Source of the DNA: Eledone cirrhosa
Lineage: Eukaryota
Length of the DNA: 64,000 bases
Assembly: GCA_964016885.1 (NCBI GenBank)
Contig: OZ024743.1
Location: 374,790,001-374,854,000 of the forward strand
Reading direction: 5' to 3'
The notes beneath the pieces are model-generated. The model was not told where the DNA came from and did no database searches. It saw nothing but the letters and a program-made list of their open reading frames with translations. How positions within the stretch are numbered: the stretch's first letter is position 1; the number at the start of each line of letters is the position of its first letter. Below, one piece after another: positions 2,893-40,505 of this stretch. Both the position numbers and the translations under genes were made by a program.

Positions 2893-3141
2893 ATAACGAA
2901 GGAAATGTGGTAAGGAACCAGGTGCACCATAATGCACCAAAGTACTCAATACTTAGTGTAGTAGAGTGGGTAATAGGAACAAGTAAGACCCCGACGGCTG
3001 AGCTCAAGCCGTAATCCTCTCCCTCTATTTTGATAATAGACTCCAGTATGGCCTTGTACCTGTGAAGTGGAGACAAGCATTACGTTACATTAGCCGTCGA
3101 AACGGCTTGAGCTCAGCCGTCGGGGTCTTACTTGTTCCTAT
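2893..3141. mobile_element. Fold-back PLE-derived element, family B (HHR 3' half plus tail)
   Basis: Inverted arms ataggaac...gctcaagccgt / acggcttgagc...gttcctat; GAAAcggct..agccgTC motif; in (TA)n; same family at 13804, 35690, 36372, 38777. Confidence 0.75.
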
Positions 3142-3343
3142 ATATATATATATATATATATACACACATACATGGATATTATATATATATATATATATAT
3201 ATATATATATATGCAAAAGTTCTATTTAAAATTGTTGGGATACAACAAGTAAATATTTTTATAACTGATATAAAGCACTCGACAAGTATTTGGAGTAGAT
3301 ATACGATATTAATAAATGGAAACTATATTTATAAAACCATATT

Positions 3344-3408
3344 TATTTCATTATACATATTTCAGGGATACCAAATTAAATTATGGTATGCCTTCATCAG
3401 ACAAAATA
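3344..3408 (-). ncRNA. Minimal type-I hammerhead ribozyme (mirror copy)
   Basis: Reverse complement of the 3557-3621 motif; tcatcag at 3394-3400. Confidence 0.7.
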
Positions 3409-3556
3409 CACTATATAACAGTTTTATAAATAAGCTTTGACGTACCCTTTTAAAATGCAACCATTATTTTTGGAAGCCATCCAGATGGCTTCCAAAAATA
3501 ATGGTTGCATTTTAAAAGGGTACGTCAAAGCTTATTTGTAAAACTGTTATATAGTG

Positions 3557-3621
3557 TATTTTGTCTGATGAAGGCATACCATAATTTAATTTGGTATCCC
3601 TGAAATATGTATAATGAAATA
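3557..3621 (+). ncRNA. Minimal type-I hammerhead ribozyme
   Basis: tattttgt-CTGATGA(3565-3571)-aggcatacca..tggtatccct-GAAA(3602-3605)-tatgta-TA-atgaaata; stems I and II pair. Confidence 0.75.
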
Positions 3622-3781
3622 AATATGGTTTTATAAATATAGTTTCCATTTATTAATATCGTATATATATATATATATATATAGAGAGAGAGATGTATAT
3701 ATATATACATGGATATTATATATATATATGTATAGGGTTATGATTTGGTATATATATATATATAAATATATATTTATTTAT

Positions 3782-4384
3782 AAACGAAAAATCAGTGATG
3801 CATCTGAACTCAATTTATTGTGTTACAATTGTTTCCCCGGCGGACAGCTCGCGACACGATTATTGTGTGGATCTGTCTGATTCTGGACCCGCAGGTTCGA
3901 CGGACACGTCTAATGATTTCGGAGCATATTCTTTCACTGTGTATCTGACCCTATGGGCAGTACCGTCAAAAACTTCATCCTCTTCGCACGTTCAGTGATT
4001 GGCCGCTGGTTGTCTACATTGAAGTGTAGCAGACATGGACAGCGGACTGGTACCTGTGGTCAGAATTATGATGACGTAGACAACCAGCGGCCAATCACTG
4101 GACGCGCGAAGTAGATGAAGTTCTTGACGGTTCTGGCCCAAAGGGTCTGATACCCCAGTGAGAGAATATGCTCCGAAATCATTAGTCGTGTCCGCCGAAC
4201 CTGCGGGTCCAGAATCACAATGATCACGTCTCGAGCTGTCCGCCGGCGAAACAATTGTAACACACAATAAATTGAGTTGATATGCATCACTGATTTTTCG
4301 TTTTATATTATATCATACTCTGCTCTGTAAGAGCATAGAGTGCTCAACCGGCATACCGCCTATGGAAGCATCTTAGCTACCATC
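3782..4384. mobile_element. Diverged palindromic element with HHR 3' half and tail
   Basis: Imperfect inverted repeat ~3782-4018 / 4076-4304; ggc-GAAA-caattg-TA at 4245-4259; tail hairpin actct..agagtgct at 4317-4344. Confidence 0.7.
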
Positions 4385-4531
4385 ACACACACACACACGC
4401 ACACACACACACGCACACACACACACACACACACACGCACACACACACACACACACACACACACACACACACACAGACACACACAGACACACACACACAC
4501 ACACACATATATATATATATATATATATATA

Positions 4532-4893
4532 TTTTCGTTTCTGAATTTGTTTAGCAAGATTCTTTATCTGAAAACGTGTGTTGAAACCGATATTGTTATA
4601 CTTTGGGAGGGTCATGTTGCCAATAAGAAACACACGCACCAGTTGCTTTCACTTCAATTTATTATAATAAATTTATAAATTTAGGAATTTATAAATTTCC
4701 GGTTGGTTGGTTCCACAACCAGATGATTGTTTATATATTGTCAAAGTTCTTTCGTCACACATTCTGTGACCTCTTCAGTGACTGGGGATTCTTTTCTTTT
4801 CTTTGTTTTTTATGCCTCTCCTTTGTTCAGTCCTACGCCATCTTGTTTTTGTGTGTGTTGTGTGCTAAGTTTGCGCATGTGTTACATCCGGAT
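4532..4893 (+). repeat. Dispersed ~360-bp repeat of unknown class (second copy 41016-41375, inverted)
   Basis: Near-identical sequence at two loci; both copies start at a (TA)n run. Confidence 0.8.
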
Positions 4894-36778: not shown

Positions 36779-37277
36779 ACTGCCAATACATAATAATATT
36801 ATATATATATTATATATATATATATTATATATATATATATATTATATATATATTATATATATATATATATATATATATATATTATATATATATTATATAT
36901 ATATATATATATATATATATATATATATATAATATATATATATATTATATATATATTATATATATATATATATATATATATATATATATATACATATATA
37001 ATATATATATATATATATATATATATATATATATATATATATATATATATATATATATATATATATATATATATATATATATATATATATATATATATAT
37101 ATATATATATATATATATATATATATATATATATATATATATGTGTAGAAGTTATATTTAATTTGTTGGGATACAACAAGCAAATATTTTTATAACTGAT
37201 ATAAAGCATTCAACAAATTTTTGGAGAAAAAATACAATATATTAATAAATGGAAACTATATTTATAAAACCATATTT

Positions 37278-37341
37278 ATTTCATTATACATATTTCAAGG
37301 ACACCAAAGCAAATTATGGTGCGCTTTCATCAGATAAAATA
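37278..37341 (-). ncRNA. Minimal type-I hammerhead ribozyme
   Basis: tcatcag at 37327-37333; mirror of 38660-38724. Confidence 0.75.
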
Positions 37342-38659
37342 TAATATAGATCAGTTTTATAAACAAATATTGACATACCCTTAAACGAATGCGACCATTT
37401 CTGTTGGAAGCTCCCGGATAGTGGGGTTATTAATTTTATTATTGGTCTATTATGCAATTTAGTGTCGGAGAGGTTTAAATCCCATACATTTAAATTGAGT
37501 CGTTGGAATAGGGAAAAAAAAAAGAAAAAGAAAAAGACAGAGCAAACCCAAAGAAGGAAAACAAAAGAAAAGAAAAGGAATAGGAAAAAACAAAAGAAGA
37601 AAGAGAAATAGAAAGAGAAAGAGAGAAAACCCTAAGTGAGAGAGTGTTGTATTAACGTAGTTTTATGAAATGATGAAGTGAAAAGATAAATATATAGTTG
37701 GATGAGTTAGCGTGTATAGATAAATAAATAAATAAATAGTAGTAACCGGAGAAATTTATCTATTGTTTAAATTTGATTAAATTATTGAGATCTATAAAAG
37801 TTAAAATTAAAAATTGAGATCTATATTTTATTAAAAGAATATATATATACACACACACACACACACACATATATATATATATATATATATATATATATAT
37901 ATATATATATATATATATATATATATATATATATACCATCAAAAAATATTATTAAAATATATGCTATTATTACATAACCTTACATAAATTTATTATTAAT
38001 CATCAACCAACAATTTATTATTAATTTTTCAATTAACAATAAAACTTATAAGAAATGACATAATATATGTTTAAAATGTAGGAATGTTCAGAGATTTTAC
38101 TGAAGAAAAACTCTTCTTAGTAATAGCAATACAGCGTGAGGGGAAATTAGTTGATTTATTTGTAATTTAGATAGTTCTAATGATTAAATGTTATAAAAGT
38201 TAAGATGATAAAAAAATTAAGATTATAAGAGAACCATATATTACTTTATAGTAAGTTATAAAATTTATATATTTTATAGATCCACCTGTTATATAGTTGT
38301 GACTGTTAAAATATGAGTTTGTTTACTATAACGTTTTAATATTCATAGTTTTTCAAAGTTTTTCTTTAGAATATATCTAAAGCATAAACCGTAAAAAAAA
38401 ACTTGTTTTTTCCTATTCCTTTTCCTTTTCTTTTCTTTTGTTTTCCTTCTTTGGGTTTGCTCTGTCTTTTTTTTTTTTTTTTTTTTTTCCTATTCCAACG
38501 ACTTAATTTAAATGTATGAGAGTTAAACCTCTCCGACACTAATTTGCATAATAGACCAATAATAAAATTAGTAACCCCACTATCCGGGAGCTTCCAACAG
38601 ACATTGTCGCATTCTTTTAAGGGTATGTCAATATTTGTTTATAAAACTGAACTGTATTA

Positions 38660-38724
38660 TATTTTATCTGATGAAAGCGCACCATAATTTGCTTTGGTGT
38701 CCTTGAAATATGTATAATGAAATA
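38660..38724 (+). ncRNA. Minimal type-I hammerhead ribozyme
   Basis: tattttat-CTGATGA(38668-38674)-aagcgcacca..tggtgtcctt-GAAA(38705-38708)-tatgta-TA-atgaaata. Confidence 0.8.
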
Positions 38725-38775
38725 AATATGGTTTTATAAATATAGTTTCCATTTATTAATATATTGTATATATAT

Positions 38776-38902
38776 ATAGGAACGAGTAGGACCGCGACGG
38801 CTGAGCTCAAGCCGTTTCGACGGCTAATTCTGGACTACCCTAAGTATTGAGTACTTTGGTGCGTTATGGTCCACCTGATTCCTTACCACATTTCCTTCGT
38901 TA
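38776..38902. mobile_element. Family B element with one arm deleted
   Basis: Short arm joins directly to the distal tail (ctggact|accctaagtattgagtac). Confidence 0.7.
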
Positions 38903-39670
38903 TATATATATATATATACTGCCAATCCATAATAATATTATATATATATATATAATATAATATTATATATATATATATATATATAGATAATTTAATATAT
39001 CAACTAACATAAGCGCACAGATGCACGTCCATGCCAGCAAATACACAGGTTATGTCATAGTACCTAGGTGGTTCAATGGAGGAGGATGCAGAACAATAAT
39101 AAAATTTAAGTAAGTAAGTAAAAAATTTTTTTAAAATTTTTTAAAAAATATTTTCTTATTTTATGTCTTTTATATATATATATATATATATATATATATA
39201 TATACAGTATATATATATATATATATATATATATATATATAAAAATGAGGTAAATATCTCATTGAGCACTAAGTACACACTGAGATATATAGGGTGTCTA
39301 CAATATAATTGTTATTCTATGGTACTAATTCGAGATACTAGAACTATAAAAATTGATGAGCAGAACAAACAAACATTAAACAATCCTTTAAATAAATTAA
39401 AAAATAATTTAAATATCTACCTGTTCATAATGCTATTTATATTTACACACACACACACACATACACATATATATATATATATATAATATTATATTATATA
39501 TATATATCTAATATTATTATGGATTGGCAGTATATATATATATATATATATATATATATATATATATATATATATATATATATATATATATATATATATA
39601 TATACATATATATATATATATATATATATATATATATATATATATATATATATATATATATATATATATA

Positions 39671-40505
39671 TATTCATTAGTTAAGCAAAACAAGACCACA
39701 AATTTCACAAGGAAGACATTATTAAAAGATTGTCAACATATTTTAGTTTGATGTAAGGAATGTAGAGAACAACAATAACAGCACCAACAATAACAATGTC
39801 CGTTTACAATCGTTTCGCTACTCCATATGATATTTCTGGATCAAATGACTATATATCAATTAACACATTTAAAGACAGAGCGGCTCATCGGAACTTCAAA
39901 TGAATATAAATTAAAATAAGGAAAGAATTTTACCCATAGGCAGATCTCACACAATGCAGCCTCGACAGATGAATACTGCTTGATTATGGCAGACTATTGA
40001 TACACCCAGGACACCATAGGGTAAAACCAATATATGGAACATTACATTATGTAACATTCTTTCCTTATTTTAATTTATATTCCTTTGAAGTTCCGATAAG
40101 CCGCTCTGTCTTTAAATATGTTAATTATTTTCAACTGAACCAGATCAATAATGATATATAGTCATTTGATCCAGAAATATTATGTGGAGTAGCGAAACAA
40201 TTGTAAACGGACATTGTTATTGTTGGTGTTGTTATTGTTGTTCTCTACATTCCTTACATCAAACTAAAATATGTTGACAATATTTTAATAATGTCTTCCT
40301 TGTGAAATTTGTGGTCTTGTTTTGCTTAACTAATGAATATTTCCAGCTCTGCTCACCTAACTTTTGCATGAACCCAGCCACCTAGCTACTTTCTACTGCA
40401 TATTGCACATTGAGCACATGCCTTTACGCTTTGGCTTCTAACTAATTCACCAATCTCTCCTCTCCTATCTCCATCTCTCTCTTTAAGATTGGTTACTCTT
40501 GAACT
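39671..40505. mobile_element. Palindromic PLE-derived element with HHR motifs on both arms and a tail
   Basis: Arms ~39671-39928 / 40056-40340; minus gtt-CCGATGA-gccgctc..gagtagc-GAAA-cgattg-TA-aac (39802-39894); plus copy 40090-40208 with core CCGATAA; tail 40341-40505. Confidence 0.8.

Follow-up and report, generated by a model that had tools for sequence, protein, structure and literature searches.

A bulged hairpin apparently marks both ends of the tail in Hydra-clade Penelope-like elements of Eledone cirrhosa

How Penelope-like elements (PLEs) recognise their own RNA, and how their one-sided tail and inverted ends originate, is an open question: a single PLE has been reconstituted, with its RNA-binding motif left undefined (PMC11167929). 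A 64,000-nucleotide (nt) stretch of the Eledone cirrhosa genome (assembly GCA_964016885.1, contig OZ024743.1, positions 374,790,001 to 374,854,000 of the forward strand), hereafter the window, raises this question directly. It holds lopsided palindromes, a known PLE layout (PMC8557442), and a preliminary description of the window had noted that in most of them the longer arm carries a tail that starts with a stem of the form RCTC…GAGYRC. Here we ask whether this stem is real, which elements carry it and what it does. We find a bulged hairpin that apparently has gone undescribed so far; this cis-element occurs in duplicate in one known clade of retroelements and marks the PLE tail at either end. 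The short motif is conserved in sequences from coral and sea cucumber, in this genome and in numerous contigs of marine metagenomes, has element ends at fixed offsets and makes the origin of the tail directly testable.

A bulged hairpin at the start of the tail

The motif is a real bulged hairpin. RCTC pairs with GAGY in a lower stem of four pairs, two nucleotides (TH, T first) bulge out of the 3′ strand, an upper stem and a variable loop lie beyond them, and RC follows past the stem. Positions 1–45000 of the window hold 11 matches to the structured form, defined by an upper stem of at least two pairs beyond the 2-nt 3′ bulge, against 0.4 expected (maximum 3) in 60 block-wise dinucleotide shuffles; the loose RCTC/GAGYRC pattern gave 16 distinct matches against 5.1 in the same number of shuffles. 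All 11 examples and the orphan listed in the preliminary description are present where, and on the strand, it placed them, including the mismatch at 12860–12905, except that the motif at 4317 ends at 4343 and not 4344. That list thus captured a real motif; it missed the upper stem and the invariant bulge, as well as the instances at 12549–12576 (−) and, in decayed form, 37206–37227 (−). The further claim that the opposite arm stops close to RCTC held for 10 of the 11 cited examples: counted in the 5′ direction from the R of the hairpin, the last base shared by the short partner arm is −1 to 7 nt away in nine cases and 13 nt in one (4317). No convincing partner arm was found for 8475, 29417 or 12549.

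Among 69 strict hairpins (L090–L166), 38 have TCT as the three bases past the motif, so the recognised sequence may extend 3′. The best 150 of 231 matches from an Rfam scan of the window all fell below the gathering score, were mostly microsatellite-driven microRNA families and included no hammerhead or similar family. A full-text literature search found no description of the hairpin, although one may exist in subscription papers, Repbase reports or unread supplements.

Blind recovery of the hairpin across the genome

The genome around the window spans 3.0 Gb and is rich in AT and microsatellites. We applied a detector ignorant of the motif to 73 other 10-kb stretches of the genome (69 at arbitrary coordinates and 4 flanking the window); it called inverted repeats of which one of the two arms runs out in a microsatellite. 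The hairpin was found at −2 to +14 nt in 30 of the resulting 78 asymmetric calls (29 of them within −2 to +7 nt) and in 13 of their 38 sequence clusters, as against 1 of 156 control windows further out; a first pass over 56 stretches had given 24 of 51 calls. Not every tailed element carries the motif. Many hairpin-negative calls are decayed or not PLEs, but there are at least five real tail classes without the hairpin, among them a DKG-type PLE of this genome with AC-rich tails of 37–40 nt that reads into a DKG open reading frame (ORF). The motif thus appears limited to one clade, as far as tested the Hydra clade, rather than being the Naiad or general Penelope feature that the preliminary description suggested searching for.

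Four window families trace to Hydra-clade elements

Family C, followed through 30 loci, has two discrete ends, the longer of which adds about 115 nt that start with a variant hairpin, as predicted beforehand from a tail-less copy in the window (9320–11558). In a tandem family C copy, the tail is the 5′ untranslated region (UTR) of the next ORF, and the family C ORF encodes RWK, DKT and CxCX5C, which are marks of the Hydra clade (PMC8557442). RWK is found in families C and D and RWR in A and B, with RW[KR] present in 105 of 120 homologues, and DKT occurs in all four traced families (A, B, C and D). Translations of families A and C, read by eye, contain the CxCX5C linker before a C-terminal GIY-YIG domain together with CxxC and CxH, and no CCHH finger; insertion into (TA)n is also seen, as in the Hydra clade. 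The autonomous unit of family A is 3.54 kb long with a single 717-aa Hydra ORF, and unit lengths of 3.48–3.54 kb lie above the usual Hydra size of <3 kb (PMC8557442). Since the hairpin-tailed families A, B and D, along with family C, trace to Hydra-type ORFs, the window elements are, judged from sequence, heavily 5′-truncated Hydra-clade PLE insertions. The families had been called unrelated, which is true of their DNA only. The elements at 2942, 13853 and 36420 belong to one family, and those at 3275 and 21645 are related.

Neptune and Naiad, which the zinc-finger linker and the targeting of (TA)n had brought into view, were ruled out by DKT/RWK and domain order; the Naiad/Chlamys arrangement, with an N-terminal endonuclease and DKA, was not encountered, the endonuclease here being C-terminal and the motif DKT. 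Pfam searches with ORF pieces named no PLE domain, and a sequence search of the PDB returned nothing below E 0.29.

A hammerhead core, identified by pattern match, is present in family B and in most of the metagenome loci described below. Family A units lack CTGANGA and family C has a CCGATGA variant, against a report that canonical hammerheads are universal in Hydra elements (PMC8557442). The canonical CTGANGA is likewise missing at the hammerhead position of L230, L231 and L178, which are tandem arrays built of 3.54-kb units whose 717-aa Hydra ORFs are open; the tandem ORFs of L230 and L231 look intact.

A second hairpin lies just past the long end

Full units contain two hairpins between the hammerhead and the ATG, and in the tandem family C copy the second lies past the long end. 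We searched five window families for hairpin 2 within 10–14 nt past the long end, with reversed patterns as controls, and recovered it as predicted in families A (350 matches), B (50) and D (79, including double counts), with none in the controls. Counted in the 5′ direction from the hairpin, short ends are 0–7 nt away from hairpin 1 and long ends 3–5 nt away from hairpin 2; tail length and hairpin spacing agree to within 2 nt in three families (80/78, 92/93 and 115/115 nt). With the second hairpin placed just past the long end, both ends are marked. Hairpin 1 had been proposed as a structured marker of the PLE tail, and it does begin the tail; its counterpart past the long end had been missed.

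Contigs of other sequencing runs (X1 and X4, possibly the window's own source), aligned to family A, have loose ends into (TA)n that accumulate in two main positions: 290 contigs in X1 end 3 nt ahead of hairpin 2, and 62 end 5 nt ahead of hairpin 1. Summed contig depth drops more than 100-fold across hairpin 2. TAT/ATA stands directly 5′ of 55 of 69 hairpins versus 21 of 69 on the 3′ side, and both element ends fall at TA, which is also the target sequence.

Conservation and covariation in metagenome loci

A 35-protein alignment retrieved 77 marine-metagenome Hydra loci, of which 49 had enough pre-ORF sequence and 28, with short or truncated 5′ ends, were left out. A strict hairpin lies within 170 nt before the ATG in 40 of the 49, and two hairpins in 29, compared with 2 of 147 ORF windows and 2 of 49 antisense strands. 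Clustering at 70% protein identity left 35 clusters with a median pairwise identity of 46%, of which 28 have the hairpin and 24 have two; paired hairpins are 54–83 nt apart, and hairpin 2 stands 34–69 nt from the start codon. Where the second pseudo-long-terminal-repeat (pLTR) copy ends inside a contig, 10 termini fall 0–6 nt to the 5′ side of a hairpin, seven at hairpin 1 (including one decayed hairpin) and three at hairpin 2; two termini taken up below fall elsewhere, and all other rows reflect contig ends, read-through, or matches at junctions or in low-complexity sequence. Of six published Hydra consensuses inspected by eye (PMC8557442), the hairpin is clear in Hydra-2_Amil (coral), Hydra-1_Ajap and Hydra-2_Ajap (sea cucumber), deviant in a copepod consensus and beyond the model end in one from coral; the Hydra-1_Ajap consensus starts 2 nt before hairpin 1 and has both hairpins inside. 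Much as first suggested, the motif is thus a conserved cis-element with a defined structure: it follows the hammerhead on the 3′ side, keeps a fixed spacing to the short end and is present in autonomous elements.

We assessed covariation in 60 instances from the 35 clusters, with anchors picked by sequence only. The first upper-stem position pairs in 55 of 60 instances (C-G 38, T-A 15; 42 when permuted), the second in 46 (26 when permuted) and the third in 40; all three lie far above permutation, and slid registers were at chance. Lower-stem changes comprise G-C to T-A (5) and C-G to T-A (2), and the first pair is also A-T in this genome; the inner TC/GA pairs and the bulge T served as search anchors, so their constancy is partly by construction. 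Compensatory stem changes, claimed earlier from the window alone, are therefore found as covariation in the metagenome clusters and in this genome. The hairpin can serve as a DNA marker of Hydra-clade elements and their non-coding derivatives, and it fixes annotation boundaries.

Insertions join a long arm to a short arm

Head-to-head pairs of family C, collected with a query neutral to either end, join a long to a short arm in all 10 distinct pairs; one apparent ‘long–long’ row (L014) represents an inverted segment from inside the element that continues into the ORF. Family A yielded 15 long–short pairs, and its three rows flagged as same-class comprise two decayed long arms and one cross-element pair. 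The family of the hairpin at 20757, selected for long arms, gave 14 long–short rows (one locus twice), 4 that join a long to a slightly shorter arm, and no long–long row. In three family C pairs (L004, L006 and L010), the long arm consists of a 34–40-nt tail only and the short arm holds at least 144 nt that are absent from it, indicating that the short arm was not copied from the long arm. Given this pairing and short arms that outreach their long partners, the short end looks like a start and not a stop, and both ends are best read as independent complementary DNA (cDNA) starts, each just 5′ of its own hairpin at TA-rich bases where the target would anneal.

Four truncation or inversion junctions (L004, L006, L010 and L014) fall within 11 nt of one another, about 16–26 nt 3′ of hairpin 1, a clustering that could reflect either a putative roadblock formed by protein on hairpin 1 or a hairpin of AT-rich sequence nearby. 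A copy that has a short end and lacks a second element end shows a near-perfect fold-back on its 5′ side (35081–35449), so self-primed fold-back also occurs.

Hairpins as likely priming sites

In the likely reading, the hairpins act as RNA and serve as docking sites for the element's own reverse transcriptase (RT)–endonuclease, where they would position the priming of reverse transcription; among the roles offered in the preliminary description, defining where reverse transcription starts is the best fit. A read-through (tandem) transcript would contain both hairpins, and a protein would dock on each. A nicked (TA)n target could then pair with the UA-rich stretch immediately 5′ of a hairpin and prime cDNA there, such that priming at hairpin 2 would copy hairpin 1 and give a tailed end, whereas priming at hairpin 1 would give a tail-less end. 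Where both target ends were primed, probably on one shared RNA by two subunits, the two truncated cDNAs would be joined head to head and produce the lopsided palindrome. Bulged stem-loops load or position RTs in the hepadnavirus epsilon, telomerase RNA boundary elements and the R2 3′ UTR, an analogy only, with no sequence relation shown; PLE RTs are sister to telomerase RT, and the hairpins bear on how telomerase-related RTs set their template register.

The two-start reading matches, by analogy, the in vitro behaviour of a lizard PLE, whose RT initiates at two internal sites that bound the tail, with both target strands extended and a dimer predicted (PMC11167929). Tentatively, we take this one step further: double target-primed reverse transcription might proceed on one RNA, with each ~20-nt hairpin loading one RT–endonuclease subunit and each subunit priming one end of the cut (TA)n target, so that geometry alone would generate the tail and the inverted pLTR. 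The hairpin pair might then be a transplantable tag and, if this is true, would let the protein insert any RNA.

Several observations weigh against priming at two RNA hairpins. The strict hairpin is absent from 9 of the 49 metagenome loci, two metagenome termini (L101 and L121) lie elsewhere, and the published octopus consensus Hydra-1_Obim, in the form available (PMC8557442), has no clear hairpin by eye. The search for hairpin 2 failed in two of the five window families, with 0 matches for that of 20757 and 2 chance matches in (TA)n for that of 32842; read-through copies of these families may be absent or unlike the search anchors. The permutation p-values ignore relatedness, which clustering reduced and did not model. 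Stability alone is marginal, with a mean pair probability >0.5 in context for 30 of 58 lower stems and single-hairpin z-scores of +0.7 to −2.7, modest folding energies that would be as for a putative protein-stabilised site. Counts of 13 G.U versus 9 A.C leave the strand test compatible with either RNA or complementary single-stranded DNA. Finally, arms within one insertion differ at 3.3 positions per 40 nt versus 8.4 to other insertions, which counts in favour of the two-start reading, although such similarity could also come from a single source locus or gene conversion.

Hairpins might instead act as DNA, a rival close to the endonuclease role offered in the preliminary description, with a longer cDNA or double-stranded intermediate of the tandem transcript recognised at the hairpin and cut by the GIY-YIG endonuclease at the TA 5′ of it. 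Craig et al. explain the tail by endonuclease-mediated resolution (PMC8557442), Frangieh et al. cite the Drosophila virilis endonuclease as needing the tail for recognition (PMC11167929), and the location of both ends at TA as well as the undecided strand test suit this alternative. We nevertheless consider it unlikely: tail boundaries are RT starts on RNA in the only PLE tested in vitro (PMC11167929), covariation across a one-sided bulge needs a single strand, and the junctions with the (TA)n flanks look as expected of primed ends.

If the RNA were cut or terminated just 5′ of each hairpin and reverse transcription then began at the RNA 3′ end, in ordinary target-primed fashion, identical fixed end positions would be expected. 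A cut at hairpin 1, however, would part the two templates, the long–short pairing would not be explained by itself, and the lizard element initiates internally on unprocessed RNA (PMC11167929); we hold this scheme to be distinctly improbable.

Hairpin 1 as a stop, at which second-strand synthesis on a folded-back first cDNA halts to leave the short arm, corresponds to the third of the proposed roles, an end point of second-arm synthesis. Junction fold-backs do exist (35081–35449 and 12965–13000), arms share private variants, and self-priming has been proposed for rotifer PLEs (PMC3846280). Yet the short arms of L004, L006 and L010 hold sequence missing from their long arms, direct tandem copies (L100, L106, L107, L125 and L158) also end at the short end, and hairpin 2 is left unexplained, so this idea is very improbable and largely refuted as a general rule, although it could still apply to a subset of insertions. 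It is equally hard to credit that the hairpins serve 5′ UTR translation or RNA stability, with ends nearby only through AT-rich unpaired stem flanks: hairpin 2 does keep 34–69 nt from the start codon, but ends fall 0–7 nt from hairpins in many families, other TA runs of the UTR go unused, and tail length follows hairpin spacing from about 55 to 115 nt.

Relation to described elements

These elements share with the Hydra clade of Craig et al. 2021 (PMC8557442) RWK/RWR, DKT, the CxCX5C linker, C-terminal CxxC and CxH, insertion at (TA)n, and tandem and inverted truncated copies, together with a hammerhead core pattern in part of the families; in the sections examined, that account lists hammerheads only and describes no hairpin. 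They differ from it in units of about 3.5 kb and in tails of 60–115 nt compared with 30–40 bp for the canonical PLE tail, the one-sided extension being common to both. With the green-anole Poseidon element PAc (Frangieh et al. 2024, PMC11167929), they share AT-rich targets; in PAc two internal RT starts bound the tail, and both target strands are cut and extended by a predicted dimer. The PAc sites lie inside the ORF at an AC-rich stem-loop for which no conserved or duplicated motif is described, whereas the elements here have, within the 5′ UTR, a sequence-and-structure motif on the 3′ side of each site that is common to several phyla. The DKG-type family, which is PAc-like, has no hairpin in this genome. 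Both the tail and initiation at internal sites are already published; the duplication of the hairpin and, apparently, the hairpin itself are the new points.

Features of the window

Family A contributes hairpin 1 at 2942–2967 (−), with its partner short end at 3141 and long end near 2896, at 13853–13878 (−; partner short end 14008) and at 36420–36445 (−; partner short end 36567). A 5′-truncated family A copy at 35081–35745 (+) has its short end at 35745 and the pure fold-back described above on its 5′ side, and a family A chimera at 38779–38900 consists of an arm joined to the 3′ half of hairpin 1 and inserted into another element's short end. Family B, which has a Hydra ORF, carries hairpin 1 at 3275–3296 (−), with a hammerhead core at 3360–3400 (−) and a partner short end near 3669; its relatives are found at 21645–21671 (+; hammerhead core 21534–21572 (+), partner short end 21319) and, decayed, at 37206–37227 (−; partner short end 38769). 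The family C copy at 9320–11558 (+) is a 5′-truncated Hydra-clade PLE in which a broken RT-thumb/GIY-YIG ORF piece is followed by the 3′ UTR, with a hammerhead-like sequence at 11403–11435 and a short end at 11558 that runs into (TA)n; it has no tail, hence no hairpin. Family D has hairpin 1 with a long loop at 40346–40417 (+) and a partner short end at 39670, and in its read-through copies a Hydra ORF comes after hairpin 2.

Further instances of hairpin 1 are those at 4317–4343 (+), with a 6-pair upper stem, a partner arm end near 3782 and no ORF traced; 8475–8496 (−); 20757–20777 (+), with a partner short end near 20618; and 32842–32864 (−), with a hammerhead core at 32915–32949 (−) and a partner short end at 33038. 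The decayed hairpin at 12860–12905 (−), with one lower-stem mismatch, is unfolded in prediction and has its partner short end at 13145. Orphan tails are present at 12549–12576 (−), where the 6-pair upper stem includes two G.U pairs, and at 29417–29444 (+).

Two further kinds of element bear hammerheads and no hairpin. One family, at 4533–4842 and 41068–41375, has a 55–56-nt tail, and no partner ORF was found for it in 10 loci. The other is a retrozyme-like head-to-tail unit of ~400 bp (window 32281–32774; L047:7488–8140) with a 54–56-nt tail, in which no ORF was seen and for which the genome holds about 1900 candidates. The frame at 4627–5193 (+), without a Pfam match, has an end that resembles a last exon with a C-terminal membrane helix. 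Pieces at 49.6–53 kb we take to be LTR-retrotransposon-like, and others at 47–49 and 54.4–56.1 kb presumably LINE-like. Near-identical ORFs of a non-LTR retrotransposon lie at 56470–59895 (−) and 16280–18193 (+), with RVT_1 recognised in the 1141-aa copy.

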